From the NCBI GenBank assembly GCA_031272895.1, contig JAISSW010000016.1, positions 159,098 to 223,097 of the forward strand: a stretch of DNA of 64,000 nucleotides. The letters run 5' to 3'. This stretch comes from Clostridium sp. (GTDB taxonomy: Bacteria; Bacillota; Clostridia; Oscillospirales; Acutalibacteraceae). A program made the translations under genes and the position numbers. The notes under the pieces are model-generated. The model ran no database searches. It was not told where the DNA came from and worked only from the letters and a program-made list of their open reading frames with translations. This document shows positions 14,072-31,337 of this stretch, one piece after another (position 1 is the first letter of the stretch; each line of letters begins with the position of its first letter).

Positions 14072-14249
14072 TGGCGTTATTCCCCTCTTTAATAAAGTAT
14101 TGGGTAAGCAAAAGCAAACAAAGCCGTAGCAACACGGCGTTACAATAGGATAACATAATTTTGAAAATATTGCAAGGGCGGCGGCAAGGCACTTTACAAA
14201 ATGAGTGAAAACGTGTATACTAAAGCAAAACATAATCCGGGGGAAAACA

Positions 14250-17958: not shown

Positions 17959-19512
17959 ATGGAAAAGATTCTTGTCTTGGATTTTGGCGGTCAATACAAC
18001 CAACTGATTGCCCGCCGTGTGCGCGAACATAACGTCTTTGCGGAAATCCGTGCCGGGAGCAAAATAGGAACGGACGGCGGCGCAAGCCTTGACCAGCTGC
18101 GCGAATATAAGGGCATTATTTTTACCGGCGGGCCCAACTCCGTCTATGCCGACGGGGCGCCGCGCTGCCCTGCCGCAGTGCTGGATTTAGGCGTGCCTGT
18201 TTTGGGCATTTGCTACGGTGCCCAGCTGATTGCCTACCTTGCGGGCGGACAGGTCAAGCCCAACAACGGCGTTAGCGAGTATGGGCATACGCCGTTCACA
18301 CACAACGGCGCTTCCAAGCTCTTTGACGAGGTGCCGGCTCAAAGCGTGTGCTGGATGAGCCATGGCGACAGCATAACCGAGCTGCCTTACGGCTTTGCTG
18401 CCACCGCCGCCAGCGAGGGCTGCCCTGTCGCCGCAATGGAGAACCCCGAAAAGGGGCTTTACGCCGTGCAGTTCCACCCGGAGGTTAACCACACGGAATA
18501 CGGCGAAAAAATCTTCCATAACTTTTTATATAATATCTGCGGCTGCAAGGGTGATTGGGTCTTGGACGATTTTATCAGCCGCAAAATCAGCCAATACCGC
18601 GACGAATTGAACGGCAAAAAGGTACTGCTGGCTCTCTCCGGCGGGGTGGACAGCTCTGTCACCGCGGCGCTGCTGAGCAAGGCAATCGGCGAAAATTTGG
18701 TCTGCGTTTTTGTTGACCACGGGCTTATGCGCAAGGACGAGGGCGACTGGGTTGAGCAATATTTTACTTCCAACTTCGACATGCGCTTCGTGCGGGTCAA
18801 CGCGGCAAAGCGTTACCTAAAAAAGCTCAGGGGCGTCACCGAGCCTGAGAAAAAGCGCAAAATAATCGGCGCGGAGTTTGTGGAAATTTTCAAGGAAACC
18901 ATGGAGCAAATCGGCTATAAGCACGTTTTTGCTCAGGGAACAATCTACCCCGATGTGATTGAAAGCGGCGTAGGCGACGCTGCGGTTATAAAAAGTCACC
19001 ACAACGTGGGCGGGCTGCCCAAGGAGGTGCTGGAGAAATTTGACGGTCTGCTTGAGCCGCTGCGCGATTTGTTCAAGGACGAGGTGCGCACAATCGGCGA
19101 AAAGCTTGGGCTTCCGCATGAGCTTGTTTGGCGGCAACCGTTCCCCGGTCCGGGGCTTGGGATACGCTGCATAGGCGAGGTTACGGAGGAAAAGCTGAGC
19201 ATCGTGCGCGAGGCTGACGCAATCTTCCGTGATGAGGTTGAAAAGGCGGGGCTTGATTACACCCTGAGCCAATATTTTGCGGTTGTGACCGATGTAAAAA
19301 GCGTTGGCGTTATGGGCGACAGCCGCAGCTATGACCGGATGGTGGCGCTGCGCTCAATCGACACGGCGGACTTTATGACCGGCAACTGGAGCCGAATCCC
19401 GTATGAGCTGCTGGCAAAGGTGAGCAGCAGGGTTATCAATGAGGTAAAGGGCGTTAACCGTGTTGTTTATGACATAACCAGCAAGCCCCCGGGCACGGTG
19501 GAGTGGGAGTAG
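17959..19512 (+). CDS. guaA: GMP synthase (glutamine-hydrolysing)
   Basis: 517 aa. It has a GATase domain (ILVLDFGGQYNQLIARRVRE, GICYG), the PP-loop SGGVDSSV, and the C-terminal GTVEWE. Confidence 0.95.
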   Translation: MEKILVLDFGGQYNQLIARRVREHNVFAEIRAGSKIGTDGGASLDQLREYKGIIFTGGPNSVYADGAPRCPAAVLDLGVPVLGICYGAQLIAYLAGGQVKPNNGVSEYGHTPFTHNGASKLFDEVPAQSVCWMSHGDSITELPYGFAATAASEGCPVAAMENPEKGLYAVQFHPEVNHTEYGEKIFHNFLYNICGCKGDWVLDDFISRKISQYRDELNGKKVLLALSGGVDSSVTAALLSKAIGENLVCVFVDHGLMRKDEGDWVEQYFTSNFDMRFVRVNAAKRYLKKLRGVTEPEKKRKIIGAEFVEIFKETMEQIGYKHVFAQGTIYPDVIESGVGDAAVIKSHHNVGGLPKEVLEKFDGLLEPLRDLFKDEVRTIGEKLGLPHELVWRQPFPGPGLGIRCIGEVTEEKLSIVREADAIFRDEVEKAGLDYTLSQYFAVVTDVKSVGVMGDSRSYDRMVALRSIDTADFMTGNWSRIPYELLAKVSSRVINEVKGVNRVVYDITSKPPGTVEWE

Positions 19513-19518
19513 TTGAAT

Positions 19519-19570
19519 CACGCCGTCAAATGCCTGTGTTTATCAGCATTTGGCGGCGTGTGTGTTTTGG
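19519..19570 (+). terminator. Intrinsic terminator of guaA
   Basis: A 15-bp stem CACGCCGTCAAATGC/GCATTTGGCGGCGTG with one A/G mismatch and a 12-nt loop, followed by TGTGTTTTGG. Confidence 0.6.
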
Positions 19571-19769
19571 TGGTGGCTCTGCTTTGGCTCTACGCGAGGA
19601 CTTCGGGATTTTTTTGCGCCATGCTTCACGCTCCACTCTTAATCTGCCGTTGGTTCTTGAAAGACTACCGTTTCGATCCGTTTCATCGAATTTGCACTCA
19701 CCGCGACGATACATATCCGCCCAAAAAGCAATAGCCTATTTTTTGCATTTTGCCAAAGCGTGGGCGAAA

Positions 19770-20708
19770 TTACCTTTTTTTGCGCTTTTTCTTTTTGCCG
19801 TGTATCTGCTTTGGCGCTCCGTTCCACGCCCGCTTGAGCTTTTGTCCCACGCTCTCCGCCGCCGCCAATAGCCTTTGGTTCAGGCTCCTCTCGCCGCGCG
19901 CTTCAAACGCCTTGTTATACAGCACCCACAGCCAAGCCACGCAGTAGATAACCGTAAGCAGGCTGAACCACTGCCAAAGGGTCAGCCCAAGCGTGTGCCC
20001 TACGGGGTCAGTAGCTGAGTAATAGCGGAAAAAGTCGCTTATAAAACGGAGCGTGCTGAAAATCCCGGCACAAATAGGCCAAGCGCTTCCGATAATATAG
20101 CTCTTGCTCTTTTTTATAAACCATAGGGTAAATATGCAGGCAAAAAGTGCCGCAAATGATTCAAATTCCGGAATGGGAAGATAATATACTGATGTTGCCC
20201 CTTCAGTCAAGACTGCCGGCGTAACCCCCCATGATGCCAGTTCGCCAAAGCAGCAGCCACCGAAGCAGCAGCCCAGCTTGCCAAAGCAAACCATAATTGC
20301 GATTGGCGCGGCAGATAGGTCGTAAAACTCCTTTTGCGGCAGGCGCGCAAGCTTCAGCAGCGGCCACATGAGCGCCGGCAAAAACAGGAAAGCTCCCGGA
20401 ATCAGCAGGAAGCTGCCTATTATTTCATTTCTGCCTCCCCAGCCATCAAATATCCATGCTGTGAACAGGGCGCTAAAAAAACCGGCGGGGACGATAGTAA
20501 TAGTTATAAGCGGAGCCTGCCGAATACGGATATTCATCCACTTCAGCGTACAAATCACCAATATAGTTGCGACAATCAGACCCACTCCGCTGCTGCCCCA
20601 ATAGAGCATATCGCGCACAGCGGCGGTAGTTATCTCATTATCATCAGTGCTGAGTTTTTCCGCCAACCATTGCGGAAAATTATTAAATAAAAGGTCAAAC
20701 AGATTCAT
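19770..20708 (-). CDS. Divergent Lgt-family (prolipoprotein diacylglyceryl transferase-like) polytopic membrane protein with a poly-Lys/Arg tail
   Basis: 312 aa with about 7 TM segments. FGKLGCCFGGCCFGE sits where Lgt has GRxGNFxNxExxG. LRFISDFFR resembles the Lgt RFxxEFxR motif. A WGG motif is present. The C-terminus is HGKKKKRKKR. G+C is visibly lower than in the flanks. Confidence 0.45.
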   Translation of the reverse strand: MNLFDLLFNNFPQWLAEKLSTDDNEITTAAVRDMLYWGSSGVGLIVATILVICTLKWMNIRIRQAPLITITIVPAGFFSALFTAWIFDGWGGRNEIIGSFLLIPGAFLFLPALMWPLLKLARLPQKEFYDLSAAPIAIMVCFGKLGCCFGGCCFGELASWGVTPAVLTEGATSVYYLPIPEFESFAALFACIFTLWFIKKSKSYIIGSAWPICAGIFSTLRFISDFFRYYSATDPVGHTLGLTLWQWFSLLTVIYCVAWLWVLYNKAFEARGERSLNQRLLAAAESVGQKLKRAWNGAPKQIHGKKKKRKKR

Positions 20709-20736
20709 ACAAACCTCAGTGCTTCACTATGCCAAA

Positions 20737-20763
20737 GCAGACCGCCCGCGAGGGGCGGCCTGC
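20737..20763 (-). terminator. GC-rich hairpin between the giant gene and the Lgt-like gene (weak terminator or attenuator)
   Basis: The minus-strand RNA reads GCAGGCCGCCC-CUCGC-GGGCGGUCUGC. It forms 11 bp including one G-U pair and is followed only by UUUGG. Partial read-through into the Lgt-like gene therefore seems plausible. Confidence 0.4.
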
Positions 20764-20792
20764 TTGCTTGTTAACTGCGCAACGCTTTTGAC

Positions 20793-23700
20793 TTAGGCAA
20801 ACAACCCGAAGATTTTCTTCACCCAAGCAATCAGCGTCAAGAAGAGCTGAATGAAACCAAATTGCGCAATGCCCTCACTCGGCGTTACAACCGCCTTGAA
20901 GTACTTATTGGCAAAGGCTTCTGCGTTCTTCGCGTAGGCTTGGTCGTAGCTGTTGGAGCTGAGCAAGCGCTGATATGCGTTCTTGATAGCCGTATTCAGC
21001 GACTGCCACTTGTTATACGCGGGTGTTATAACCTTTGTATCAAGCCCGAAGCACAGCACGAACAGCGCGTTCAGGGCGACATCAACGCCATAGGTGGTCT
21101 TGCCGGTGATGTCTGACTTGTGGTATGTGGTGATGAACACCAGGATATCCTCAAGTGTTTGCTTGATTGCGGAATACATGGGCTCCTTCAGGCCGTTGTC
21201 GGCGAGGGTCGCCATGATTGTATCCACATTGACCTGAGTACCCGCAACGGACACGAGAACCAACCTGAGCAGCGCGGTGAGCATATACGCCTCGTTTACG
21301 CTGTCTGTCTTGATATAGAGCGCCGGGGCGGCTCCGCTGGCGGAGGTGTAGACTGTTTCGTCTCCGGCGACGACAGCCCTGAGTGCGTCATAGGTCAAGC
21401 CAAGACCCAGACCCTGCAGCACGTCGTCAAGCAATGCGGGAATATCGAGGGCAACATCAATCGGGTCGGTAACGAAGTAGAGCTTGTTGACCTCGGAGAG
21501 GACGTAGTTGACAGGCTCAAGCAGCTTGTCGATGCAGGTATTGAGGTTTGTTTCAGCGAAGTAGAGCAGGTTCGGGAGAACCTTGAAGATATTGACTGTC
21601 GGGTTCGCAAGGATTTGCTCAACCGCGTAGAGAATCGGCTGCAGGATGGCGCGGATTTGTCCCTCGCCGTCCAATGTTGCGAATGTCGCCGGGTCAACAA
21701 CCTCTGTGAGCTTATCTTCGCCAAGTCCGACTACGAACGCCTCAAGGATAGGCACTAAGGCAACCTTGTATCCGTCCGCGCCGAAGATGTTGATGATGTA
21801 GGTGGAGCTATCCGCCTTAACAGCGTGGAGCTTGCTGCTGCTGAGCAACAGGTCAACCACCGGGATTGCGGGCTCAAGCAGCTGCACCAAGCCGTTCACA
21901 AAGCTTGTTTCATCGTTAACGACGATTGAGCCGGAGGTGTAATTCTCGAACGGAGCGAGGATTACGTCAAGGTCGAGCGACTGGATTGTACCCTGTGTTG
22001 CGTTGCTTACCGCCACAAGGTCCTTAAGCAGCTCTGCCAAGCTCTTGCCGCCAACGTTGATGTTGCGGATTGTGGGGATATAGTCCTTAACAAGGTCAAC
22101 AATCATGTCGAAGTTGGACTGCGTGTAGAGCGCGTTGCCAAGCAGGTCTGTGAGGATTGACTCCTCCTCTTCAATCACGTCGTCGATTGTAGCCTGTACG
22201 CTGCCGAACGGCTTACCGAAGAGAATCTTGAACACCTTGTTCAGGAAGTCGTCCGCATGGGCGTAGGTGTAGTCAATGTGCTCCTGCGTCCACCACTCGT
22301 CACGGATTTGGCTGTCAAGCGTGAAGCCCTCTGCGTCGCCGTAGGTTATTGGTGTGTTGAACGTGAACACGCCGTCAGGTCCGTACATGAGGTGGTAGAG
22401 TGCGTCAAGTACAACGTCCGGGTCACCCTGAATGTTGCCGAGTACCTCCGCGACGATGTCAACAATCTGTTGGTCGCCAAGGAACTGGTAGACAAGGTCA
22501 AGTCCCTCTGTTGTGTTAAGTGCGTCAACAAGGTTGAGCAGCACCGAGAAGAAGTATTCAACCTGGCTGGTGCTTAGCTTCGGATAGTATCCTGTCCTTA
22601 CCGCCGACTTGCACTGAACCTTTGCGGTTGTGCTGACGGAGGCTGTGTCGGTTATTGTTCCGACGACAAGCGCCTTGACCAAGTCCGCGTCAACGACGGT
22701 GGTAAGGTCAACGCCTTTAACAACCAACAGACCCTCGTCCTTAAGCATACCGAGTATGCCGTCCAAGCTGAGCATATCAACATAGGAATTGATGAGGTCG
22801 GAGGTGTTGTAGAGCGGACGCACCGTGTCGAGCAGCACCAACAGTGTTTCCAGCGTGTTCTTCAGCGCGTCGCTGAGCGCCGTGTCTGAGGCGAGGAAGA
22901 ACACCATTTGCGGCAGACGGTCAAGCAGCTCGCCAATTGGGTCTGCGGCAATAACCGCCAAGGAGTCGAACACCGGCGCCAGGATTGCGTTGACGAAAGC
23001 CTCGTTGCCGGCCGCCGTGCCGTCATAGAGCGCCTTAACCGCCGTTGCGGATTGCAGGTTAGTGGTGAGCGTCAAGCCCTCCAGCAGCGGGATAAGGCCG
23101 TTCTCGTAGCCATTGTAGCCGGGGATAATGATTGTGTCGTCAAGCACACCCAAATCCTTGTTGAAGAGCATTGTGTAAAGCAGCGGGGCAATTGGCGAAA
23201 CCAGTTTGCCGAGTGCCGCCTGGAATTCCGCCTTGTCGTCAATCTGGTCGTCGCCGTTGCCGATTCCGGTCCAGAACGTGCCGCCGCTGGTGTAGGTCCA
23301 GGTGTTGTACTGGTCAAGGTCAATTTCGGGCAGCAGCTCCGCAACAAGCGGCAGGTAGTCCGCGATTGGGCTTGCCGGTCCAACATACTTCAGCAACAAG
23401 TCTTTAACTTTGTTGAAGATATCCGTTGTGTAAACCTTGCCGTCCAGCAGGTCGTTGACTAAGGCGTTCACGTCCATCAACTCGCCGCCGGTTAGGGCAG
23501 TCAAAATCATGTCGAGTATTGCCTGACCCTCAGCCTGGCTGAGCGGGTGCGTCGCGTTAAAGGTATACGGCGCCTGAACAATACCCGGCGTGTAGCCGAT
23601 TGTGTAGGCGGCGTAATCCGCGCTGGGAATCATAAGCTCCGTTACCGCGGCAATTGCCTCTTCGCTGTCGGGGATTGAAAGGTTCAGCCCAATATCTCTC

Positions 23701-26700
23701 ATGTAGCTGTCATTCAGAACCCTTGTCAGCAAGGTATACAAAACGTCAGCTTTGTCTGCCGTGATGTAGTGACGTGGCTGGGAATTATTAAGCGTATCTG
23801 TACGTTTAGTCGGCAGAATTGTCGCACCGGCAATGTCTGTCGCAGAGGAGCGAATTGTACCGTAGGTTTCAATGTCCGTCAAATCCGGAACATACGCTGC
23901 CGCGCCGCCAAACAGTGCAAGAACTGAATTGAAATTGCCCAAATCCAAACCAAGCCCATCAAGTACACCATTGATTACACTTGAAAGATCGATTCCGGGA
24001 ATAATAAGCGGGTCAGGCATAATTTTATTGTGCGACTCTTCATAAGCTTGCTGCGAAGCCGCCAGACCAGATCCTTGAATCCAAATGTGGATACCATGTT
24101 TCATCGAACCATCCGGGATGTCCGGAGTGCTTTGTAACACAGAGCAGGCAGAAAACGAACCCATTCGTATCCAACCATCAATGTCCACATTCAGTTCAAG
24201 TATAATGCCGTCTAACAGTGAGGAAATACGGTCACGGTCAAATGCGTACAGTAGGTTCGGCAAGAGCTCAAGGAGCTTGCTGACCGGTGCCGCCCCCAAC
24301 TGTTGAATGTAAGCGTCAATCGGGTTCAGTATTGCGTTAACTATATTTTTGCTTGCAGTAAGCACGCTGGACTGATTATAAGTATAGTTTGACTTGCCGG
24401 TTACGTACTTGTAGAATTGGCCCTTGACTCCCGGCGGGTTGCTTTGTCCGGCTGAACCCGCAACCTGTCCATAACTAACACCACCCAAGAAGTTGCCCGA
24501 CGAACCATCGCCATCTGTTGCAGTTGCATAAACCTTGGTAACATGCCCAATTGGCTTGCCGTAATTTGTTTGTGACTGCAGGGTTGACTGCGTTGGAATC
24601 GAATCATAAATCGTTCCTGCACCGGTCGCGGTACCCGCAAGCACTTCAAAGATTGGCGCAAGCAATTCGTTGTAAAGACTCATCGCCGGGATTTGCAGTT
24701 CAATGTAAATTCCGCCTGCCGCAGTTGTTGACCCATTGACAGTGTCGCCCATTGGGCTATACATCGCGTTAAGGTTAAACGGAATAGTGAAATCGCCTTG
24801 TTTTACCGAACCCGTCAAGCTACCGATATTATCGTGGAAAGCGTAGTATTCGGTTCCTGCCATCATTGTTTTCAGCAAAGGCAACAGACCGCTCAACGCC
24901 GCCGCGAGTGCTTTTTTAAACTGCGCCACGCGAGTGCTACCTGCAAGACTATCAATACCCCAGTCAAATACGAGTTCCCCTGCCTTTTGGAAATATGCAT
25001 TATTGGGGTTTGACGGATTTGCGTAATCATATTCCGTCACTCCGGCGGGAGGCGGATTCAACGGGTCGGTAGTGTAAACCTGACGCCCCAAGCTATCAAT
25101 CGTTGGAGTCCAAATTGAAGAATCGTGCCAAATGCCACCGTTTGCCTTGTTGATTGTACCCGGCACATAACCTGAAACGCCGCCTTGAGCGTTTGACTTA
25201 ACAAACAACGACCCATGCAAGTCTGTGTAAGGCGCCTGCGCGGTATAGGTTCCGCCTCCGGCAAGCGTAAAGTTATCAGGTCCAAGTTTTTTCAGTGCGT
25301 TATAGATAGCCGGGAATTCCGAAGAACCCATCGCATCTGCAACAAGGTCCGGATAGAGCCGCAAATCCTGAATGGTATTGGTGTTCAGCGCTGCTTTAGC
25401 CTTATTCGCCAAAATATCGTGCAGGTTAAAGATTTCTAAGGTAAGACCATCATTGCCTTCCAACAGAGATGGGCTAGCAATACCACTAAAGGCGTCCTCA
25501 AACTTCGCCAAAACCAATGGATACAGGAACAACATGAGTGTGTTGACCATCTTGTTGCTGTAAAGCTGATTTTCCAAAATCCCTTGCAAAATGGTGCTGA
25601 CGTTGGTCGTGTCCACACCGTAAAGCATGCTTTCAGGATTACTTGTGTCAACCTTGAGTAAATCAAAGATTGCCTTCACGTCGCCATTGGAGCCAAGCAA
25701 GTCATCCAACTTTGCAACAACATCATTGATTTTATCCTCAGTCACAAGATATTCGTGGTTGTCAACCAGGTCATCCGCTTTTGGTGTTCGGTCAACGTAG
25801 TTGCCGCTTCCGGCCGGGCTGTCTGCGTTATTTGTTATCCAATATTTCTCCGGGTTGTTCTCATAGTCCTGCACTAAGGGCTTAACCTTATTTAACAGGA
25901 ATAGATAGTCATTGATAACATTGCGTGCAACATCTGTGTACGGCGCACCAAACAGCGTTGGCGCCGTTAGCGGGGTAATCGCGTTTATATACTCTTCACG
26001 ATAAGTAGTGTTGAGAAGTCCATTATACAAGCTCGCCTTTATTGCATTGATTGCCATAAGCAAAGGCGCCGCATTTGTTGGGCTAACCCTTATGGTGCCA
26101 TCCGTGAACTGAATAAGGTTGCTTGCCTCAAGGTCAAAGTAAACGCTCATGGCATTTGAAACCTGCTCTGCAAAGCGTGAAGCAAGCTCGCCGCCATTAC
26201 TGCCGAGTACATTCGGCATAATGTAGTAATCCTCATAGGAAATCCACGCTGAGTTAACCGAATCGTAAATATACCAAATTTCTTGGTTAAGCTCCGCCGT
26301 CATCTTGGAGTCTGCATAGGCGGCTGCCTTTGCAGTCTTATATTCGGTGTACTTAGCGTCCGCCGCGGCAAAATTGCTGATTAGCGTTGCATCATTCGCG
26401 AGCTTTGCCTGGGCGGCAGTTATCCCCATTGAGAGGAAGTCATTACGCAAGCTATACCACGTTGCCTCATGCACCTTGCGGTATTGTACCTCTGCGTTAA
26501 GACGATTGTAAATGCTAGACATCTTAAGGTAGAATGGGAACAGTGTGCCAACGTCCGAACCCAACCCATTAAGAACCGCCTGGTATGTGTTTGCTTGAAG
26601 CGAAAGCACACCGATTTGATTTGTGGAAACATACTTGTCCTGGTCCGCCACAGGGGTTCCGGCAGGATACGGTAAATCCCAATTCGCCCCCCACCAGCTG

Positions 26701-28304
26701 TTTTCGTCCGTTTCAGTTTCGGGGTAATAGTGGAAGTTGAATTCACTGTTAACACTATAATCGCTTTGTTGAGCCGGGGGCAAGGCAGATATTTCGGCAG
26801 CAGTGATTTCGGCATAGTCATTAACCATTGCACGAATATCCGGCTCCAAAATGGCGAACGAACACAGCGACAAAACCTTAACCATGTTGGTGTTATAGTT
26901 AACCCAAGCAGTAGTATCGGCAGTCGCCAAGCTATTGTCCGTAAGGTATGTGTCAAGGTCCGTCCTATCCTGGGCGGAATAGGTCGCAGAATTATAGCCA
27001 TTGGTGTAATTGGCTGTGAAGTTGTTAATCGCGGCGGTAAAGCCGGTTGTAACAACATCTCCGTTAACGTCCGTCGTGGCTGTAAAACCGTCAATCAACC
27101 CGGCGTTTACGTCCTGAGCCAACGGCCATTGGTCGCTAAGGTTTGGTGTGAAATTAAACGCCGCCGTGTTGGACGGAGTCGTTGCGGTCAGCACACCCGT
27201 AGCGCCTTGGAAGTACTTATAGTAATTATAGAGATTTTCAATGCGAGCAGCTTTCGTTATGGCGTTGTTTAGGTTGGTGATTGCCGCATCAACATTGGTG
27301 TAGTTTGCGGAACCGAAGAAATGCCCAAGCAGAGTGTCGCGCTCACTTGCAGCAACACCTGTTGCGCCCGTGATTGCAGTCTTTGCAGCGTTCAATTCCG
27401 TGCGGATATCCCACAAGGTGGTTTCGCCGTTAATTACATAATCGCCAACCAAGGCTTCAATTTCGTCGCTTGTGTCAACCTGGTCATAGTTTGCGGTGTT
27501 GGTTTTCCAAGTTGTCAGTGCGTCCTTAATCCCCTTGATATTTGTCGTGGTTACCGAGGCCGTGGGCCGCTCCGACATTGTTATGCCGCTTGCACGGCCG
27601 CCCCTAACCCTGTAATTTAAAAGTCCAACGTATCTCCACCAATACCATTGTTGTTGCAGAGCTGATGTTGGGCCAACAGACATACTTGCGGCAGTGTCTA
27701 TTGTGTCCGTCAAGGTGGTCCAATCCGAAACGGTCGTTATGATGTCCACCGCGGTATATGGACCCGCAGAGTAGCTGCCGCCGTTTTGGCTACTAACCGT
27801 CGGATAGTTCGGATAGCTCGGGCTCGCGCCGGTTTTAGCGTAATACCTCGTACTGCTTTCAGAATAGGCGGCAAGCGGAGTAGTTCCCGTATCGGCGGTA
27901 GAATCATTAGCTCCCGTCGCCGCTTGGAGGATTGCCTGCACCTGGGCAGCCGTTGCCCCCGCAACAGTCGTGCCCTTCAGGGCTTGGTAAATCAGCTTTG
28001 GCGTATAGTTTGTTCCGGCAGTTTTTGTCGCCGAAGCACCGTCGCTCGTTTCAGCACCTTGCGCCGGGTAAACCGAATACGCCAGCTTTGTCCAAGTCAT
28101 GCTGTCCATTGCCCTTGCCAAGGCTGCGGCAATTTTTAAGTTCAGTTGTGCTGCGGCGTCAGGTGTGGCCGCAACAGCGTCATCCTTCAGCACCGCCGGC
28201 AGGGCCAGCAGCGGCACAACGCACACAACCGCGCTGAGTACCATGAGTATGCTCAGCAGCAGACCTAAGGTGCGCCGTGGCAACTTGCGTAGGGTTCTTT
28301 TCAT
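20793..28304 (-). CDS. Giant (2503 aa) predicted envelope protein of unknown function, with an N-terminal signal/anchor and a C-terminal hydrophobic tail
   Basis: A single uninterrupted 7.5-kb ORF with RBS AAGAGG. The N-terminus is MKRTLRKLPRRTLGLLLSILMVLSAVVCVVPLLALPAVL, a basic n-region followed by a long hydrophobic stretch. The last 21 aa are FGFIQLFLTLIAWVKKIFGLFA. The composition is rich in T/N/D/A/L/Y. I recognise no known domain, no LPXTG signal and no cell-wall-binding repeat. Confidence 0.8.
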   Translation of the reverse strand: MKRTLRKLPRRTLGLLLSILMVLSAVVCVVPLLALPAVLKDDAVAATPDAAAQLNLKIAAALARAMDSMTWTKLAYSVYPAQGAETSDGASATKTAGTNYTPKLIYQALKGTTVAGATAAQVQAILQAATGANDSTADTGTTPLAAYSESSTRYYAKTGASPSYPNYPTVSSQNGGSYSAGPYTAVDIITTVSDWTTLTDTIDTAASMSVGPTSALQQQWYWWRYVGLLNYRVRGGRASGITMSERPTASVTTTNIKGIKDALTTWKTNTANYDQVDTSDEIEALVGDYVINGETTLWDIRTELNAAKTAITGATGVAASERDTLLGHFFGSANYTNVDAAITNLNNAITKAARIENLYNYYKYFQGATGVLTATTPSNTAAFNFTPNLSDQWPLAQDVNAGLIDGFTATTDVNGDVVTTGFTAAINNFTANYTNGYNSATYSAQDRTDLDTYLTDNSLATADTTAWVNYNTNMVKVLSLCSFAILEPDIRAMVNDYAEITAAEISALPPAQQSDYSVNSEFNFHYYPETETDENSWWGANWDLPYPAGTPVADQDKYVSTNQIGVLSLQANTYQAVLNGLGSDVGTLFPFYLKMSSIYNRLNAEVQYRKVHEATWYSLRNDFLSMGITAAQAKLANDATLISNFAAADAKYTEYKTAKAAAYADSKMTAELNQEIWYIYDSVNSAWISYEDYYIMPNVLGSNGGELASRFAEQVSNAMSVYFDLEASNLIQFTDGTIRVSPTNAAPLLMAINAIKASLYNGLLNTTYREEYINAITPLTAPTLFGAPYTDVARNVINDYLFLLNKVKPLVQDYENNPEKYWITNNADSPAGSGNYVDRTPKADDLVDNHEYLVTEDKINDVVAKLDDLLGSNGDVKAIFDLLKVDTSNPESMLYGVDTTNVSTILQGILENQLYSNKMVNTLMLFLYPLVLAKFEDAFSGIASPSLLEGNDGLTLEIFNLHDILANKAKAALNTNTIQDLRLYPDLVADAMGSSEFPAIYNALKKLGPDNFTLAGGGTYTAQAPYTDLHGSLFVKSNAQGGVSGYVPGTINKANGGIWHDSSIWTPTIDSLGRQVYTTDPLNPPPAGVTEYDYANPSNPNNAYFQKAGELVFDWGIDSLAGSTRVAQFKKALAAALSGLLPLLKTMMAGTEYYAFHDNIGSLTGSVKQGDFTIPFNLNAMYSPMGDTVNGSTTAAGGIYIELQIPAMSLYNELLAPIFEVLAGTATGAGTIYDSIPTQSTLQSQTNYGKPIGHVTKVYATATDGDGSSGNFLGGVSYGQVAGSAGQSNPPGVKGQFYKYVTGKSNYTYNQSSVLTASKNIVNAILNPIDAYIQQLGAAPVSKLLELLPNLLYAFDRDRISSLLDGIILELNVDIDGWIRMGSFSACSVLQSTPDIPDGSMKHGIHIWIQGSGLAASQQAYEESHNKIMPDPLIIPGIDLSSVINGVLDGLGLDLGNFNSVLALFGGAAAYVPDLTDIETYGTIRSSATDIAGATILPTKRTDTLNNSQPRHYITADKADVLYTLLTRVLNDSYMRDIGLNLSIPDSEEAIAAVTELMIPSADYAAYTIGYTPGIVQAPYTFNATHPLSQAEGQAILDMILTALTGGELMDVNALVNDLLDGKVYTTDIFNKVKDLLLKYVGPASPIADYLPLVAELLPEIDLDQYNTWTYTSGGTFWTGIGNGDDQIDDKAEFQAALGKLVSPIAPLLYTMLFNKDLGVLDDTIIIPGYNGYENGLIPLLEGLTLTTNLQSATAVKALYDGTAAGNEAFVNAILAPVFDSLAVIAADPIGELLDRLPQMVFFLASDTALSDALKNTLETLLVLLDTVRPLYNTSDLINSYVDMLSLDGILGMLKDEGLLVVKGVDLTTVVDADLVKALVVGTITDTASVSTTAKVQCKSAVRTGYYPKLSTSQVEYFFSVLLNLVDALNTTEGLDLVYQFLGDQQIVDIVAEVLGNIQGDPDVVLDALYHLMYGPDGVFTFNTPITYGDAEGFTLDSQIRDEWWTQEHIDYTYAHADDFLNKVFKILFGKPFGSVQATIDDVIEEEESILTDLLGNALYTQSNFDMIVDLVKDYIPTIRNINVGGKSLAELLKDLVAVSNATQGTIQSLDLDVILAPFENYTSGSIVVNDETSFVNGLVQLLEPAIPVVDLLLSSSKLHAVKADSSTYIINIFGADGYKVALVPILEAFVVGLGEDKLTEVVDPATFATLDGEGQIRAILQPILYAVEQILANPTVNIFKVLPNLLYFAETNLNTCIDKLLEPVNYVLSEVNKLYFVTDPIDVALDIPALLDDVLQGLGLGLTYDALRAVVAGDETVYTSASGAAPALYIKTDSVNEAYMLTALLRLVLVSVAGTQVNVDTIMATLADNGLKEPMYSAIKQTLEDILVFITTYHKSDITGKTTYGVDVALNALFVLCFGLDTKVITPAYNKWQSLNTAIKNAYQRLLSSNSYDQAYAKNAEAFANKYFKAVVTPSEGIAQFGFIQLFLTLIAWVKKIFGLFA

Positions 28305-28495
28305 TGTTGTTACCTCTTTTCTTAGATTATATTGCCTGAGTTTGGAATGTGAATTGGTGCCGTGTTACGGCGGTTTGCCTGCAATCATGTGTTATCAAAC
28401 CCCATTTCTTTATATTTGCCATTGGTTTAGCCGATTTTGGGATAGCGGTTTCCCCGCAATACCGAGTAAAGGGGCATAGCTCCCCCCTATGGGGT

Positions 28496-28524
28496 AATGA
28501 TAGCACTCAAATCCCGCGAAGTCA
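28496..28524 (-). promoter_or_regulatory. Candidate sigma-A promoter of the giant gene (TTGACT-17 bp-TATCAT)
   Basis: On the minus strand the sequence reads TTGACTtcgcgggatttgagtgcTATCAT. It implies a 5' UTR of about 185 nt ahead of the ATG at 28304. Confidence 0.45.
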
Positions 28525-28535
28525 AGCCTTTTATA

Positions 28536-28562
28536 GAAAAAAAAGCGACGTTTTTGCCGCCG
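28536..28562 (-). terminator. Candidate intrinsic terminator ending dpaAB transcription
   Basis: The minus-strand RNA reads GCGGCG-GCAAAAA-CGUCGC followed by U8. The stem is short (6 bp, including one G-U pair). Confidence 0.4.
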
Positions 28563-28579
28563 CTTGTGCAATTTGCACA
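28563..28579. promoter_or_regulatory. Perfect 17-bp palindrome TTGTGCAA-T-TTGCACAA (candidate operator)
   Basis: Read directly from the sequence. Related half-sites lie at 28588-28595 (TTGCACAA), 28604-28611 (TCGTGTAA), 28631-28638 (TTACACAA) and 28679-28686 (TTGTGTAA). Confidence 0.4.
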
Positions 28580-28617
28580 AATGTCATTTTGCACAAAAAG
28601 TTTTTCGTGTAACGTCC

Positions 28618-28632
28618 GTTTTTTTTTTTTTT
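28618..28632. repeat. Homopolymeric T15 (A15 on the coding strand of the giant gene)
   Basis: Counted directly: 15 consecutive T residues. They lie between the inverted half-sites TCGTGTAA and TTACACAA. Confidence 0.95.
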
Positions 28633-28773
28633 TACACAAAAGATATTCGCTCGAAATTTTATTTTTCCGCTAAAGAAATTTGTGTAACCCGATTTTTACC
28701 ACTTGTAAACGGTTTTTATTCAATTTGCCCTAAAAACTTTGTCACATGGCGTTCATTTTTCCTCAATCTGCCC

Positions 28774-29346
28774 TCACTTTTTTGCCAACAGGGGCTGAAT
28801 TTGCCTGCCAAGCAGGGCTTGCTCCAGCGCTTGGGCAGTTTGACCAAAGTCCGCCACCAAGGAGCGGGGCTTGCCCTGTGCGTCGTCCTGCCCGAATGGT
28901 ATAAAATATATGTTTCGCGCGTTCAGCAGGCGTCCAAGGCTCTGTGCGCTGCCGCTCAAGCCGTCGTTGGTCGCTACGCCTATCAGCACGGGGCGCTCAT
29001 TGCGCAGCTGTGCCTTGGCCGCCATGGTTACGGCCGTGTCGGTTATCCCCCTTGCCAGCTTGCCGAGGCTGCCGCCTGTGCAGGGCGCGATAATCAGGCA
29101 GTCAAACAGCCTGCCCGGACCAATCGGCTCCGCCTGAGGTATTGTGTGCCAGACCTCCTTGCCGCTGCATTTTTCCGCGCGGCTGACCCAATCCGCCGCC
29201 AAGCCGAAGCGGGTATCCAGCGAATACGCGTTGGCGGAGAATATCGCCCGCAGCTCATGCCCGGCGGCGCAAAGCTCCTCCATGACGGGAAAGACGGCGG
29301 CAAAGCTGCAAAACGAGCCTGTGACGCAAAAAGCGATTTTTGCCAT
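28774..29346 (-). CDS. dpaB: Dipicolinate synthase subunit B (SpoVFB)
   Basis: 190 aa flavoprotein-like protein (MAKIAFCVTGSFCSF..., IIAPCTGGSLGKLARGITD). It sits directly downstream of dpaA. Confidence 0.85.
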   Translation of the reverse strand: MAKIAFCVTGSFCSFAAVFPVMEELCAAGHELRAIFSANAYSLDTRFGLAADWVSRAEKCSGKEVWHTIPQAEPIGPGRLFDCLIIAPCTGGSLGKLARGITDTAVTMAAKAQLRNERPVLIGVATNDGLSGSAQSLGRLLNARNIYFIPFGQDDAQGKPRSLVADFGQTAQALEQALLGRQIQPLLAKK

Positions 29347-29369: not shown

Positions 29370-30254
29370 TCAGCCCGCAGAGCGCCTAAGCTCCCGCAGG
29401 ATTGAGTGAACCGTATCCGCAATAATAAGCCCCGCTGTTTTTGGCGCCGCCTTGCCCGGCAGACCCTGCGCAAGTATATAGTGCATACCAAGCCGCCTTG
29501 CCGCCTGCGAGTCAATACCAAAGGGTGCGCCCGCTATCTCTATCAGCAGGCAGGCTTTACCTAACGCGGCAAGCTGCTTTTCCCCCAAACACTGTGCCGG
29601 TATTGTGTTCACCAGCGCGTCAAAGCGGCGTGGGCTGTCGGCAAGCTCCTCCAGCGCTATCGGCTCACAGCCCTCCGCAAGCGCCTGCGCCAGGTCACGC
29701 CTTTTCCTTGCGGCTACTGCCACCCTTGCGCCTATCCCCCGCAGCACTCGGGCAAGCGCCCTTGCGCAGCGCCCATAGCCTGTGACGCAGATTGTGCAGC
29801 CTGCCACCGCCGTTTCCAGCTCCCTAAACAGGATCGCGAGCACACCCTGCGCCGTCGGCACGGCATTTGCAATAGCCGCCTCCTGGCAGGCAAGGTAATC
29901 GAACACGGCAATCCCCTTGGCAAAAAACAGCTGCCTAAGCTCCCGCGGCGGCAGACCCGCCAGCACCGTCTGACCGGGCGTAACAAGTGACACAATTTCC
30001 TTAGCCGACAGTTCTTCGTCAAAAAAATCCGCGCGCAGTATATCACGCCCCTTGGAGTTTTTAGTAAAAAGCGGCAGCACCGCGGCATCACAATGCCCAA
30101 GCGCCCCGCGCCAAGCACAGCCCTTTACAAAGCGCAGTGCTTCAAAGTCCTCCTGCGGCTCAAAGCCGCCCACAAGCGTATCATAGCCCTTTTTCTTAAG
30201 GCTCTGCGCCGCAAAAAGCATACGGCGGTCGCCGCCAAGCAGCAGCAGTTCCAT
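29370..30254 (-). CDS. dpaA: Dipicolinate synthase subunit A (SpoVFA)
   Basis: Rossmann motif VTGYGRCARALARVLRGIGARV with an N-terminal MELLLLGGDRR. I prefer the ATG at 30254 (RBS AGGGGG) over the track GTG at 30260. Confidence 0.85.
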   Translation of the reverse strand: MELLLLGGDRRMLFAAQSLKKKGYDTLVGGFEPQEDFEALRFVKGCAWRGALGHCDAAVLPLFTKNSKGRDILRADFFDEELSAKEIVSLVTPGQTVLAGLPPRELRQLFFAKGIAVFDYLACQEAAIANAVPTAQGVLAILFRELETAVAGCTICVTGYGRCARALARVLRGIGARVAVAARKRRDLAQALAEGCEPIALEELADSPRRFDALVNTIPAQCLGEKQLAALGKACLLIEIAGAPFGIDSQAARRLGMHYILAQGLPGKAAPKTAGLIIADTVHSILRELRRSAG

Positions 30255-30365
30255 TCCCACACCCCCTGCCGACAGCTTATGCTCTCACCCTCGGGCGGGT
30301 GCCGCAGTTCTATGCCCCTGCCTGTCCGCATAGACTTAACAGGACAAACTCAAGGGGGCGAAGGC

Positions 30366-31337
30366 ATGGAGAGCAGAAACTCGGAGCGTTTCCGTCAGGC
30401 AGCGGGCTTTTTGTGTCCGCGCCTTACTCAGTTGCTTTGTTCCTTAGATGAGGGGCTTCGCGGCTCGGTAAGGGAAATTCGCCTGAGGAGCGAGCGTCCC
30501 CTGCAGCTCCTTACGGGGGAGGGGCTGTTTTTTGTTGTTGACGGCAGTCTTTCCAAGACCGGGGCGGGCGCTGCCTGTGTAAGCTCCGCAGAGCTGCGCG
30601 AGTGCTTCAGCCGCCTTTGCGAATACTCTGTCCACGCGCACGGGGCAAGCATTGCCCGTGGCTTTGTTGCTGTTCGCGGCGGTCACAGGGCTGGGCTTTG
30701 CGGCACGGCAGTGCTCGCCGACGGACAAATCACTTCCCTGCGGGATATTTCCTCAATCAACCTGCGCGTTGCGGGGGAATACCCCGGTGCGGCAAACGGC
30801 CTTTTCGGACGTTTTTTTGCCCACGGCTTATGCTCCCTGCTGCTGGCGGGACCGCCCGGCTGCGGGAAAACCACCCTGCTTAGGGATTTGGCGCGGCAGC
30901 TGAGCCTTTCCGGCAGACGGGTCAGCCTGCTGGACGAGAGGGGGGAAATTGCGGCTGCGCACCGCGGCGTTCCCCAAAACGATGTCGGCTTCTCGGACGT
31001 CCTCACGGGCTATCCAAAGGGCGAGGGGCTTCAAATTGCCATTCGCTGCCTTAATCCTCAGCTTATCCTGTGCGACGAAATAGGCTCCATTGCGGAGCTG
31101 CGCGCCATGGAGGAGGGGCTGAACGCGGGTGTCAGCTTAGTCGCAAGCGCCCACGCCGGCGACGAAAAGCAGCTGTTGACCCGACCCCAGCTACGCCGTC
31201 TTTTAGGGGCGGGGATATTTGATTATATCGTGCTGCTTGGAGAACAGCCCGGCTCCGCATACCGAGTGCTTGGTGTACACCAAACGGCGCAACCCTTATT
31301 GAGGGACAACGCAGCGGAAGCAAAAACATTTTTTTGA
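30366..31337 (+). CDS. spoIIIAA: Stage III sporulation protein AA (ATPase)
   Basis: Internal ATG at 30366 (MESRNSERF..., RBS AAGGGGG). Walker A motif LLAGPPGCGKTTLLRDL. First gene of an eight-gene spoIIIA-ordered operon. The upstream part of track ORF 30093.. overlaps dpaA in antisense. Confidence 0.85.
   Translation: MESRNSERFRQAAGFLCPRLTQLLCSLDEGLRGSVREIRLRSERPLQLLTGEGLFFVVDGSLSKTGAGAACVSSAELRECFSRLCEYSVHAHGASIARGFVAVRGGHRAGLCGTAVLADGQITSLRDISSINLRVAGEYPGAANGLFGRFFAHGLCSLLLAGPPGCGKTTLLRDLARQLSLSGRRVSLLDERGEIAAAHRGVPQNDVGFSDVLTGYPKGEGLQIAIRCLNPQLILCDEIGSIAELRAMEEGLNAGVSLVASAHAGDEKQLLTRPQLRRLLGAGIFDYIVLLGEQPGSAYRVLGVHQTAQPLLRDNAAEAKTFF

Follow-up and report, generated by a model that had tools for sequence, protein, structure and literature searches.

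A predicted accessory cell-envelope locus encoding a giant modular protein and an Lgt-like paralog between guaA and dpaB in a Clostridium genome

Flanked by housekeeping and sporulation genes, with guaA at one border and dpaA, dpaB and spoIIIAA-AH nearby, a 9.2-kb interval of a Clostridium sp. chromosome holds only a very large gene and a small Lgt-like one, raising the question of what the two encode, whether they belong together and how they came to lie there. We analysed this interval within a 64,000-nucleotide stretch of contig JAISSW010000016.1 (the window), for which a sequence-only reading had favoured a low-G+C, horizontally acquired or otherwise atypical accessory module combining an orphan envelope protein with a dedicated lipid-transferase-like partner.

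Layout of the locus

Checking of coordinates confirmed the positions given by the sequence-only reading for both minus-strand genes, for the hairpins and for the AT-rich leader (Table 1). The sole open reading frame in the spacer next to guaA (19503-19871, plus strand) overlaps the ends of both neighbouring genes and was taken as spurious. The region 5′ of the giant gene (469 bp, 39% G+C) contains two promoter-like sites, one about 190 nt 5′ of the start codon, together with a predicted terminator that sets dpaB transcription apart from that of the giant gene. Between the giant and Lgt-like genes, which share a strand, lie 84 bp with a hairpin and a GAGG ribosome-binding site of the Lgt-like gene, which comes after the hairpin. 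The hairpin itself is confirmed; the weak U tract formerly ascribed to it is not, as there is no real one and the terminator scan does not call the structure. Read-through of this U-less hairpin would allow both genes to be co-expressed.

Table 1 Features of the guaA–dpaB interval and its borders, in window coordinates
Feature	Position	Strand	Basis or remark
guaA	17959-19512	+	Identified by family search
guaA terminator	19519..19570	+	Arms 19519-19533 and 19546-19560, then TGTGTTTTGG; read from sequence
Non-coding spacer, 199 bp, 48% G+C	19571..19769	.	Between convergent guaA and Lgt-like gene
Lgt-like ORF, 312 aa	19770..20708	-	GC3 0.575
RFISDFFR, aa 221-228	20025..20048	-	Lgt TM6 motif counterpart
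Variant Lgt signature motif GKLGCCFGGCCFGE, aa 143-156	20241..20282	-	Alignments
13-bp perfect GC-rich hairpin, 5-nt loop, in 84-bp intergenic spacer	20735..20765	-	Centroid -25.8 kcal/mol
Giant ORF, 2,503 aa	20793..28304	-	ORF call
3′ compositional segment, codons 1560-2503	20793..23627	-	GC3 0.717, G+C 0.546; change point
C-terminal tail GIAQFGFIQLFLTLIAWVKKIFGLFA	20796..20873	-	Conserved, predicted helical, hydrophobic to amphipathic, membrane-seeking
Canonical module copy 2, aa 2003-2277	21474..22298	-	Module HMM; motifs GADGYKVALVPILEAF and FKVLPNLLYF
Canonical module copy 1, aa 1596-1834	22803..23519	-	Module HMM
5′ compositional segment, codons 1-1559	23628..28304	-	GC3 0.530, G+C 0.493; change point
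Single-copy head, aa 830-1385	24150..25817	-	Diverged family module with long insertions
Variable N-terminal region, aa 46-829, Thr/Ala/Asn-rich	25818..28169	-	Coverage histogram
Predicted N-terminal signal peptide or anchor, aa 1-45	28170..28304	-	Basic n-region, 28-residue hydrophobic stretch, then AVA-A
Giant gene ribosome-binding site AGAGGT	28312-28317	-	
Second promoter-like site TTCACA-16-TATAAT, 11/12	28326..28353	-	Directly 5′ of ribosome-binding site
Sigma-70-type promoter-like site TTGACT-17-TATCAT, extended -10 TG	28497..28525	-	Consensus match only
dpaB intrinsic terminator, 8-bp stem then T8	28543..28565	-	Terminator scan
dpaB	28774-29346	-	Family search

A family of giant modular proteins

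The giant protein, described as an orphan from its sequence, proved to have many relatives: a full HMMER scan returned about 294 cluster representatives at E <= 1e-3 (122 at E <= 1e-30), all of them 2,000-7,700 aa long, with several matched stretches each and mostly unnamed, every one of which had been missed by a word-index search. The records that bear names are termite-gut Oscillospiraceae MAGs. Family-wide features are a signal peptide, an N-terminal pattern 'K/R..LSxxLSxLMV', tandem modules and a Phe/Lys-rich amphipathic C-terminal helix. Mostly helical and ~300-450 aa in length, the module occurs in one to about thirteen tandem copies, and protein length rises with the copy number found by the module HMM (r = 0.92). 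Neither the window protein nor the family matched any Pfam, NCBIfam, PHROG or PADLOC model or PDB sequence, and the family gave no PDB fold match. These features point to a large family, not described before, of giant proteins that are modular, predicted to be exported and found in gut Clostridia.

The window protein is acidic and rich in Leu, Ala and Thr, with six Cys only, of which Cys28 lies in a non-lipobox context (AVVC). Almost no family members match aa 1-600 in the coverage histogram. The head is homologous to the C-terminal module (hhalign A5 versus A1, probability 99.1%, E = 1.6e-18). AF2 models of the head (pLDDT 70.4, pTM 0.73) and of aa 1984-2503 (pLDDT 76.6, pTM 0.68) are mostly helical with hairpins, at pLDDT 70-77; the head had no PDB fold match and the C-terminal region none in PDB or BFVD, which is soft evidence because only 23-26 sequences went into either model. 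The tail is unusually Phe-rich (20%) and comes after a conserved A-P/Q-N-G-F motif. Its median hydrophobic moment across the family is 0.62 versus 0.33 for internal windows, and in the window protein hydrophobicity outweighs amphipathicity (mean hydrophobicity 0.58, hydrophobic moment 0.42). The giant protein does bear a signal or anchor at its N terminus and, at its C terminus, a membrane-seeking tail.

Two kinds of known protein offer partial parallels. E. coli PBP5 and PBP6 are exported enzymes with C-terminal amphipathic-helix membrane anchors; as in the giant family, a Sec-exported protein ends in a helix that is hydrophobic on one side and basic on the other and that would fasten the protein along the plane of the outer leaflet, but there is no homology, and the giant-family tail is set apart by its Phe content and the A-P/Q-N-G-F motif before it. 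The RCC1-type giant genes of Oscillospiraceae (bioRxiv 10.1101/2023.11.21.568195) and the S-layer/MBG-domain giants of 'Hodor' megaplasmids (bioRxiv 10.64898/2026.02.21.707213) likewise encode very large exported tandem-repeat proteins of gut Clostridia whose length varies with repeat number. In those giants the building blocks are beta-rich domains already in Pfam, with sortase linkage in some, whereas the family described here has no Pfam domain, is mostly helical, lacks LPXTG and ends in a C-terminal tail of its own.

An Lgt-like paralog with altered catalytic residues

The product of the small gene matches PF01790 (E = 7e-11, 42.3 bits versus a cut-off of 24.9) over model positions 84-239 only, and scores 42.7 under NF000778, for which the equivalog cut-off is 334. 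Its earlier identification as an Lgt-like paralog therefore stands, far under equivalog cut-offs: it is a true member of the Lgt family and probably not the housekeeping enzyme. Set beside E. coli Lgt, whose structures are PDB 5AZB and 5AZC, it matches over the major TM domain, retains the Arg239 equivalent in the TM6 motif (RFxxxFxR), with Glu243 replaced by Asp, and has seven hydrophobic segments (by eye) and a basic, cytoplasmic C-terminus in the form of a poly-Lys tail. Part of the Gly/Cys-rich region typical of clostridial Lgts (GRIGCxxxGCCFG in P0003) is also present. The N-terminal third, however, is unrelated to Lgt, no HGGL motif is recognisable and nothing can be aligned with HGGL/His103, and the neighbouring giant protein has no lipobox. 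Streptomyces Lgt1 and Lgt2 also exemplify an additional Lgt-family gene in a Gram-positive genome, but those paralogs retain their catalytic residues and act on ordinary lipoproteins, and the window gene does not retain them. Its Lys144 sits where E. coli Lgt has the essential Arg143, at which substitution by Ala, Glu or Lys inactivates the enzyme (R143A/E/K; PMC4728403). This replacement together with the missing HGGL could simply mean a dead enzyme.

Pairing of the two genes

The Lgt-like gene does not accompany the family in general. The two lie side by side in the window and in one relative, L002, where a tandem pair of Lgt-like genes sits directly upstream of the giant gene amid different flanking genes, so that the link has survived rearrangement. 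A GK[LF]GC..GCC motif is common to the window protein and both L002 copies, and is also found on a metagenome contig, again in a tandem pair. At P0042 a PF01790 gene lies 6 kb away. No Lgt-like neighbour is present at five loci viewed on two sides (P0011, P0157, P0007, the fragmented L019 copy and the same-genome paralog P0154), and none was seen at four further, partly viewed loci, three with the upstream side unread and one with very short flanks. An Lgt-family gene within 10 kb at 2/10 other loci corresponds to a rough estimate of p ~0.03, and a functional link between the genes is suggestive only. No Cys or lipobox is conserved among the giant proteins whose genes neighbour an Lgt-like gene, and Cys28 of the window protein is missing from P0153 and P0042.

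The family libraries and literature searched contained no description of such a pairing, in agreement with the initial reading, which did not recognise it as any described system. The nearest parallels are conceptual. Lipocone 'Skillet-1' enzymes, encoded next to proteins with a GS lipobox-like motif, are predicted to carry out non-canonical lipidation (PMC12419801), as is the archaeal AliA/AliB system (PMC12462473); both present a dedicated membrane lipid-transferase-like enzyme beside an exported proposed substrate, in replacement of Lgt. They have no sequence relationship to the window pair, which lacks a conserved acceptor motif and whose association is sporadic.

Base composition

The interval has 50.6% G+C versus 56.5% in the rest of the window and is the lowest 9.2-kb stretch there, the lowest non-overlapping one having 0.549. 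Recounting of the single 60-nt lines on which the low-G+C claim had been based gave 0.367, 0.483 and 0.383 inside the interval and 0.783 outside; the counts were accurate and the size of the effect was overstated, as 60-nt lines have an sd of 0.08 everywhere in the window. GC3 is 0.600 in the giant gene (z = -1.7) and 0.575 in the Lgt-like gene (z = -2.3), relative to 47 other window genes (mean 0.664, sd 0.038), a few of which are equally low (minimum 0.564). Once amino-acid composition is allowed for, both genes still fall 2.3-2.8 points under expectation, or ~1.6-2 sd.

This low composition is not uniform across the interval. The giant gene has a single GC3 change point at codon 1559 (~nt 23627; log-likelihood ratio 44, against a maximum of 9.1 in 500 permutations), with 0.530 on its 5′ side and 0.717 on its 3′ side. 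The 3′ 2.8 kb therefore looks native, in contrast to the 5′ 4.7 kb and the Lgt-like gene. The 3′ segment and the family's conserved C-terminal unit coincide, and homology blocks with the closest relatives begin at ~aa 1595-1633. No such step occurs in relatives or in the same-genome paralog, which has native GC3 (0.686); one relative's copy has higher GC3 than its own flanks and adjoins TraG/TnpV remnants. Against the L019 copy, head and tail of the window protein are about equally distant (38.5% and 40.2% identity), so the GC3 step comes without matching phylogenetic incongruence.

Origin and role of the locus

The explanation we prefer, which taken as one whole we regard as on balance probable, though not strongly so, is that the guaA–dpaB interval is a chromosomal accessory cell-envelope locus of two genes. 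Of the initial proposal it keeps the atypical composition and the accessory envelope character, and gives up the single insertion. That insertion, a recent horizontal cassette placed as a unit between guaA and dpaB, we consider improbable. Its appeal lies in the lowest-G+C stretch of the window, the position of both genes in the low tail of GC3, the housekeeping and sporulation flanks, and the unrelated contexts of relatives' copies, one of them by TraG/TnpV remnants; yet one clean insertion does not fit, because the 3′ 2.8 kb lying between two low-GC3 parts is at or above the genome norm. The locus also has no integrase, tRNA or flanking or direct repeats, there is no plasmid, phage or viral match, and a paralog of native composition is already in the genome. 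No donor can be identified, as the nearest relatives of the giant protein are only ~40% identical; for GuaA, the collection searched contained no relative above 90% identity. More serious, if still doubtful, is that the genes are ordinary native neighbours by chance, the giant being a surface protein typical of the lineage and the Lgt-like gene a paralog either unrelated or in decay; low GC3 would then come from weakly selected codons and drift towards AT in sequence that evolves fast and is poorly expressed, rather than from a foreign source. The rarity of the Lgt-like neighbour at family loci, its degenerate catalytic residues, other window genes equally low in GC3, the location of low GC3 in the less conserved part of the giant protein and the lack of mobile-element marks all accord with chance proximity. 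Yet the adjacency recurs in L002 in another order, with other flanks and the same derived R-to-K signature, and the within-gene GC3 step is abrupt and peculiar to this copy; faster evolution is not its obvious cause, because divergence from the L019 copy is about the same for the head as for the tail.

A sporulation role for the giant protein, as a surface structure such as part of the exosporium or of an appendage, with the gene sited by dpaAB and spoIIIA for use in sporulation, seems highly improbable: its gene neighbours and a BclA-like collagen protein adjoining one relative's copy would suit such a role, whereas the best upstream promoter-like sites are of sigma-70 type, the dpaB terminator divides the two units, and family members elsewhere lie among unrelated housekeeping genes. 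Least credible of all is a role of the giant protein as secreted effector or toxin, or as phage or defence-system cargo. Size, signal peptide and variable N-terminal part recall polymorphic toxins, superficially only; there is no toxin, PHROG or PADLOC family match, fold comparison gave no hit to structures of Tc, large clostridial toxin or MARTX type, and there is no immunity-like small gene and no viral or plasmid relative.

Under the preferred explanation of an accessory envelope locus, the giant protein would be exported and anchored to the outer side of the cytoplasmic membrane through its C-terminal helix, possibly also through an uncleaved signal, while its fast-evolving, elongated N-terminal part would extend across the wall to form a fibre or spacer at the surface. 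The Lgt-like protein would not be the housekeeping prolipoprotein diacylglyceryl transferase; it may be a specialised lipid transferase or lipid-binding partner at the membrane face of the giant anchor, or an inactive relic. We postulate that recombination or gene exchange between related gut Clostridia, and not a single clean insertion of a cassette, shaped the locus.

A family of giant modular exported proteins

Exhaustive HMMER searching shows that the 2,503-residue protein encoded between guaA and dpaB belongs to a widespread family, not described before, of giant exported proteins of modular build, and this is the most secure result of our analysis. With its C-terminal 1,200 residues as the query against 1.84 billion cluster representatives, the full scan recovered 294 proteins at E ≤ 1e-3, of which 122 also pass E ≤ 1e-30; almost all have lengths of 2,000–7,700 residues, and many match in 5–16 separate stretches. 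The sequence-only reading had called this ORF an orphan, a description that the 294 relatives overturn. A word-indexed search with the full protein likewise retrieved nothing beyond the query (annotated 'MAG: hypothetical protein LBQ80_05805 [Clostridium sp.]' and lying on a single 224,732-bp contig), and a search of the same kind with a 23-sequence family alignment gave no match, the 8,000 candidate slots of the index having been taken by chance matches to a query that is long and compositionally biased. The lesson is that the word-indexed orphan call was an artefact of method.

The few named relatives are annotated as 'hypothetical protein' in Oscillospiraceae MAGs, and a genome scan with an alignment of close relatives found five loci, with isolates Gsp477_bin26, Cf509_bin60 and Hs463_bin127 as sources; Glyptotermes, a termite, is the animal whose gut yielded the Gsp477 series (PMC11707648). 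One 90% cluster has 62 members spread over many contigs, the longest of 304 kb. The MAG that carries the giant gene holds a second family member, LBQ80_03850 (4,322 aa), whose locus in sample SRR14710912 (L014 2736–15704) shows a native GC3 of 0.686, ZnuA/ABC transporter genes downstream and no Lgt-like neighbour. Neither the giant protein nor segments of it matched anything in Pfam, NCBIfam, PHROG, PADLOC or PDB sequences, six relatives had no match in Pfam, and the literature that we found on giant bacterial genes concerns other families only (RCC1-type and S-layer/MBG-type). The giant gene cannot be assigned to any described family or fold.

Across the family, the N-termini consist of a basic stretch followed by a hydrophobic LSxxLSxLMV pattern, as in long Gram-positive signal peptides, and the start of the giant protein (MKRTLRKLPRRTLGLLLSILMVLSAVV) fits the Sec-type K/R-x-LSxxLSxLM pattern shared by most full-length members. 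The C-termini carry (A/Q)x(N/F)GF and then a stretch of about 20 residues in which Phe (20%), Ile and Lys are frequent; the giant protein ends in GIAQFGFIQLFLTLIAWVKKIFGLFA, which fits this conserved aromatic/Lys C-terminal helix, hereafter the tail. The helical hydrophobic moment of the tail has a family median of 0.62 versus 0.33 in internal windows and exceeds the internal 95th percentile in 75% of members, the tails of the giant protein and its nearest relatives being more uniformly hydrophobic. Between the termini lie tandem repeats of one module, for which a module HMM counts two canonical copies in the giant protein (aa 1596–1834 and 2003–2277) and 5–13 in larger members, and copy number correlates with protein length (r = 0.92, n = 150). 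Both module motifs, G-x-x-G-Y-x-x-x-x-x-P-[IL]-x-E-A and LP-N/x-x-x-Y, are present in the giant protein. Its single-copy head (aa 830–1385) proves to be a further, diverged copy of the module (hhalign probability 99.1%, E = 1.6e-18), and residues 1–600 are essentially without counterpart in other family members. No LPXTG sorting signal was found in the C-terminal 60 residues, and Pfam and NCBIfam searches of the giant protein and six relatives found no SLH, CWB, choline-binding, dockerin or adhesin repeat domains.

AlphaFold2 models of residues 1984–2503 (pLDDT 76.6, pTM 0.68; 23 family sequences) and of the head (pLDDT 70.4, pTM 0.73; 26 sequences) are made mainly of helices with a few hairpins, the tail being predicted as a terminal helix (residues 501–519 of the modelled segment). 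Foldseek comparison of the two models with the PDB gave best E values of 0.45 and 8.2, and comparison of the C-terminal model with BFVD gave 0.12, with no hit below 0.1 in either collection.

Layout of the locus

The two minus-strand genes and the guaA hairpin, as originally placed, agree with the ORF map and the sequence. The giant and Lgt-like genes lie on the same strand with a gap of 84 bp, in which a hairpin with a weak U-tract had been described; the hairpin stands and the U tract does not. The terminator scan of the window did not call this hairpin, and a GAGG ribosome-binding site comes after it, ahead of the Lgt-like gene. Rfam and tRNA scans of the window returned no RNA family and no tRNA, and the 5′ leader of the giant gene has no significant RNA structure (z = −0.5).

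Features of the locus from guaA to the spoIIIA operon
Feature	Position	Strand	Remark
guaA	17959–19512	+	
guaA hairpin, then T-rich tail	19519–19560	+	read directly from sequence
Lgt-like ORF, 312 aa	19770–20708	−	
Perfect 13-bp GC-rich hairpin without U tract	20735–20765	−	in the intergenic spacer
Giant ORF, 2,503 aa	20793–28304	−	
Weak internal promoter-like site	20840–20812	−	
AGAGGT ribosome-binding site		−	upstream of giant gene, after promoter-like site 28326–28353
Second promoter-like site	28326–28353	−	upstream of giant gene
Sigma-70-type site with extended −10, rated good	28497–28525	−	upstream of giant gene
dpaB terminator, canonical	28543–28565	−	
Perfect palindrome TTGTGCAAATTGCACAA	28564–28580		
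Second palindrome TTGTGCAAA	28588–28596		
14-A run	~28612–28626	−	in 39%-G+C leader region between giant gene and dpaB
dpaB	28774–29346	−	
dpaA	29370–30260	−	
spoIIIA operon	from ~30.1 kb	+	

The two palindromes lie just upstream of the −35 site of the giant gene, overlapping the dpaB terminator, and could form an operator; the 9-mer TTGTGCAAA occurs in 4 copies in the window versus 1.2 expected. Among other genes of the window, DpaA scores under both NCBIfam cut-offs (212 versus 261 and 181 versus 320; NCBI name 'hypothetical'), unlike DpaB, which passes, and these low scores suggest a divergent lineage. The mechanical spoIIIAA ORF (30093–31337) has 414 residues; with 323 residues in the called gene and a Pfam match that begins only at position 124, translation probably starts near 30366. 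In the GH2-family ORF (12347–14233), GC3 is 0.36 in the first 61 codons versus 0.68 in the remainder; the GTG annotated as its start probably lies too far upstream.

A compositional mosaic within the giant gene

The guaA–dpaB interval has a G+C content of 0.506 versus 0.565 for the remaining window and is its lowest 9.2-kb stretch, the next lowest non-overlapping one having 0.549. Four single-line G+C counts made by hand in the sequence-only reading were correct on recount; such 60-nt lines scatter with an s.d. of 0.08 throughout the window. Measured against 47 other window genes (mean GC3 0.664, s.d. 0.038), GC3 is 0.600 in the giant gene (z = −1.7) and 0.575 in the Lgt-like gene (z = −2.3). 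Both genes still fall 2.3–2.8 points below the G+C content expected from their amino-acid composition and the codon usage of the window; the low G+C therefore persists once amino-acid composition is allowed for, but it is modest in size.

The giant gene is a compositional mosaic. Its GC3 is 0.41–0.62 in all 100-codon blocks up to codon 1600 and 0.65–0.76 beyond, and maximum likelihood places the change point at codon 1559 (about nt 23627), with 0.530 before and 0.717 after. The log-likelihood ratio of this step is 44, compared with a maximum of 9.1 among 500 permutations and 1–12 in five control genes. It lies near the start of the conserved C-terminal unit, where homology blocks shared with the relatives P0005, P0008 and P0006 begin (aa 1595–1633), and is absent from the relatives' giant genes compared. 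Low-GC3 DNA thus makes up the leader, the first 4.7 kb of the giant gene and, beyond 2.8 kb of native-like sequence that forms the 3′ part of that gene, the Lgt-like gene. What had been taken for a uniformly low-GC cassette is a within-gene mosaic, with GC3 passing from 0.53 to 0.72 to 0.575.

This mosaic sits poorly with the proposal that the interval was acquired as a cassette, as do its surroundings: the tRNA scan of the window and a repeat search at the interval found no tRNA and no meaningful flanking repeats, and no recombinase occurs among the adjoining ORFs. Plasmid, phage and viral collections contain no relatives of the giant protein and lend no support to an origin from such elements. 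Relatives with more than 90% identity to GuaA, DpaB, DpaA or RsfS are absent from a collection of 15 billion proteins. What does hint at horizontal movement is the context of the family copy in Gsp477_bin26 (L019 5651–12628 = L003), where GC3 is 0.68–0.74, above the 51%-G+C flanks, and a TraG-fragment gene and a TnpV gene adjoin. This copy is broken into three consecutive ORFs of 508, 827 and 875 residues, a break that may mean a pseudogene or a misassembly.

Relatives' family genes occupy unrelated genomic contexts, and gene exchange within the giant-protein family is plausible. Descent of the head from another lineage than the tail is not supported by comparison with the Gsp477_bin26 copy, from which the two are about equally distant (38.5% and 40.2% identity), so in the available data no phylogenetic signal accompanies the GC3 step. 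We reject gene conversion of the 3′ part by the same-genome paralog, to which identity is only about 34%.

A catalytically altered Lgt paralog

The neighbour that had been read as an Lgt-like paralog is a real PF01790 homolog (E = 7.3e-11; 42.3 bits versus a gathering score of 24.9), the match spanning only model positions 84–239 of 240, the second two-thirds; the first 100 residues fall outside it and are poorly aligned. The protein scores 42.7 bits against the NF000778 equivalog, below the 334-bit cut-off for NCBI naming; P0003, a canonical-scoring clostridial Lgt, passes TIGR00544 (151.5 versus 118.9). A phmmer search with the Lgt-like protein gave no link to any solved structure.

The E. 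coli Lgt signature is G142-R-L-G-N-F-I-N-G-E-L-W-G154, in which Arg143 is essential; the crystal-structure paper reports that R143A/E/K and every substitution of His103 abolish activity (PMC4728403). In our alignment, in which the signature motif of the E. coli row is confirmed by that paper, the corresponding region of the Lgt-like protein is GKLGCCFGGCCFGE, with Lys at the position of Arg143, and that of P0003 is GRIGCFLNGCCFG. An HGGL motif or aligned His103 was not seen in the Lgt-like protein, a soft negative given the weak alignment there. The TM6 motif RFxxxFxR is kept as RFISDFFR, with Arg at the equivalent of position 239 and Asp replacing Glu243, and is invariant among three giant-linked Lgt paralogs. 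Since R143A/E/K and His103 substitutions are inactive, the protein is very unlikely to be the housekeeping enzyme. It may be a re-tooled transferase or an inactive protein. That the neighbour is a catalytically altered paralog is our next most secure result.

Cys28 of the giant protein lies mid-way in a hydrophobic stretch, in the context AVVC, and departs from the lipobox [LVI][ASTVI][GAS]C. We reject it as an atypical lipobox because no Cys is found at this position in P0153 and P0042, the relatives with Lgt-like neighbours. Giant proteins with such neighbours share no distinguishing conserved Cys or lipobox.

Gene neighbourhoods across the family

We read the neighbourhoods of eleven other family loci, all distinct, and a local HMM search of all ORFs of all fetched loci agrees with this locus-by-locus reading. 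At the locus of P0153 (L002; 2,375 aa), two tandem Lgt-family genes, both with the signature GK[LF]GC..GCC, lie immediately upstream on the same strand, in the order TokK-like B12 radical-SAM methyltransferase, two Lgt-like genes, giant gene, metK. At the locus of P0042 (L007), one PF01790 gene lies 6 kb off, among clustered genes for AMP-binding, carrier and condensation-domain proteins. There is no Lgt-family gene near P0011, P0157, P0007, P0170, P0009, the same-genome paralog P0154, P0013 (flanks very short) or the three-ORF copy of Gsp477_bin26, nor on the readable downstream sides of P0008, L004 and L005. The pairing proposed earlier recurs side by side at one locus and loosely at another, with no Lgt-family gene seen in the flanks read at the others.

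If a genome of about 2,500 genes contains 2–3 Lgt-family genes, we roughly estimate p at about 0.03 for meeting one no more than 10 kb away at 2 of 10 additional loci. Some weight is added by the derived signature that these genes share and by the altered gene order. A metagenome scan that started from the Lgt-like genes yielded only one 1.4-kb contig (L013 1–1439), which carries two tandem Lgt-like genes with Lys in place of Arg143 (K-variants) and with poly-Lys C-termini, resembling the tandem pair beside P0153; the contig offers no surrounding context. Taken together, these observations are suggestive of a link between Lgt-like and giant genes that is restricted to a sub-lineage.

Other neighbours were noted at these loci. 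The methyltransferase gene near P0153 (L002 74–2146) encodes a cobalamin-dependent radical-SAM enzyme close to TokK (E = 5.5e-103 to PDB 7KDX). Lipid- or acyl-handling genes, which may represent a recurring acylation theme, stand beside family genes at L007 19283–25961 (an NRPS-like C-A-T protein, a free carrier protein, an AMP-ligase and the PF01790 gene), L018 11353–12063 (AMP-binding) and L016 21431–26268 (GDSL lipase, MBOAT and AlgX/DHHW). DUF6273 genes precede two distant family genes (L017 722–8470 and L018 1–609); L017 also encodes a separate 2,582-residue Flg_new-repeat protein and has an ABC exporter downstream, as L005 likewise has.

Implications

Overall, the observation behind the sequence-only reading is confirmed in part, and its interpretation is supported in part. 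The mechanism that we infer is that of a surface fibre tethered to the membrane and served by a partner that handles lipids. In a more far-reaching reading, dedicated K-variant Lgt transferases would link a membrane glycerolipid covalently to a site in the giant protein that is neither a cysteine nor a lipobox, or would construct the membrane anchor of that protein in some other way, and the giant proteins would be envelope-spanning helical fibres of a new fold class, with module number setting their length. We consider this more far-reaching reading quite improbable; if true, K-variant Lgt activity would constitute a new protein-lipidation route in Bacillota.

The sporadic link to catalytically altered Lgt paralogs is a concrete, testable entry point to possible non-canonical lipid anchoring in Gram-positive bacteria, as are the acyl-activating, carrier-protein and MBOAT neighbours elsewhere. 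The family represents a substantial piece of envelope 'dark matter', its pairing with an Lgt-like gene being weakly supported. If it is as it appears, hundreds of exported proteins of 2,000–7,700 residues are encoded by gut Clostridia, much-sampled lineages such as that of the 62-member cluster included, and they are built from a module that has no described relative and no known function. Surface proteins this large are likely to influence adhesion, cell spacing, or interaction with hosts, protists or phages.
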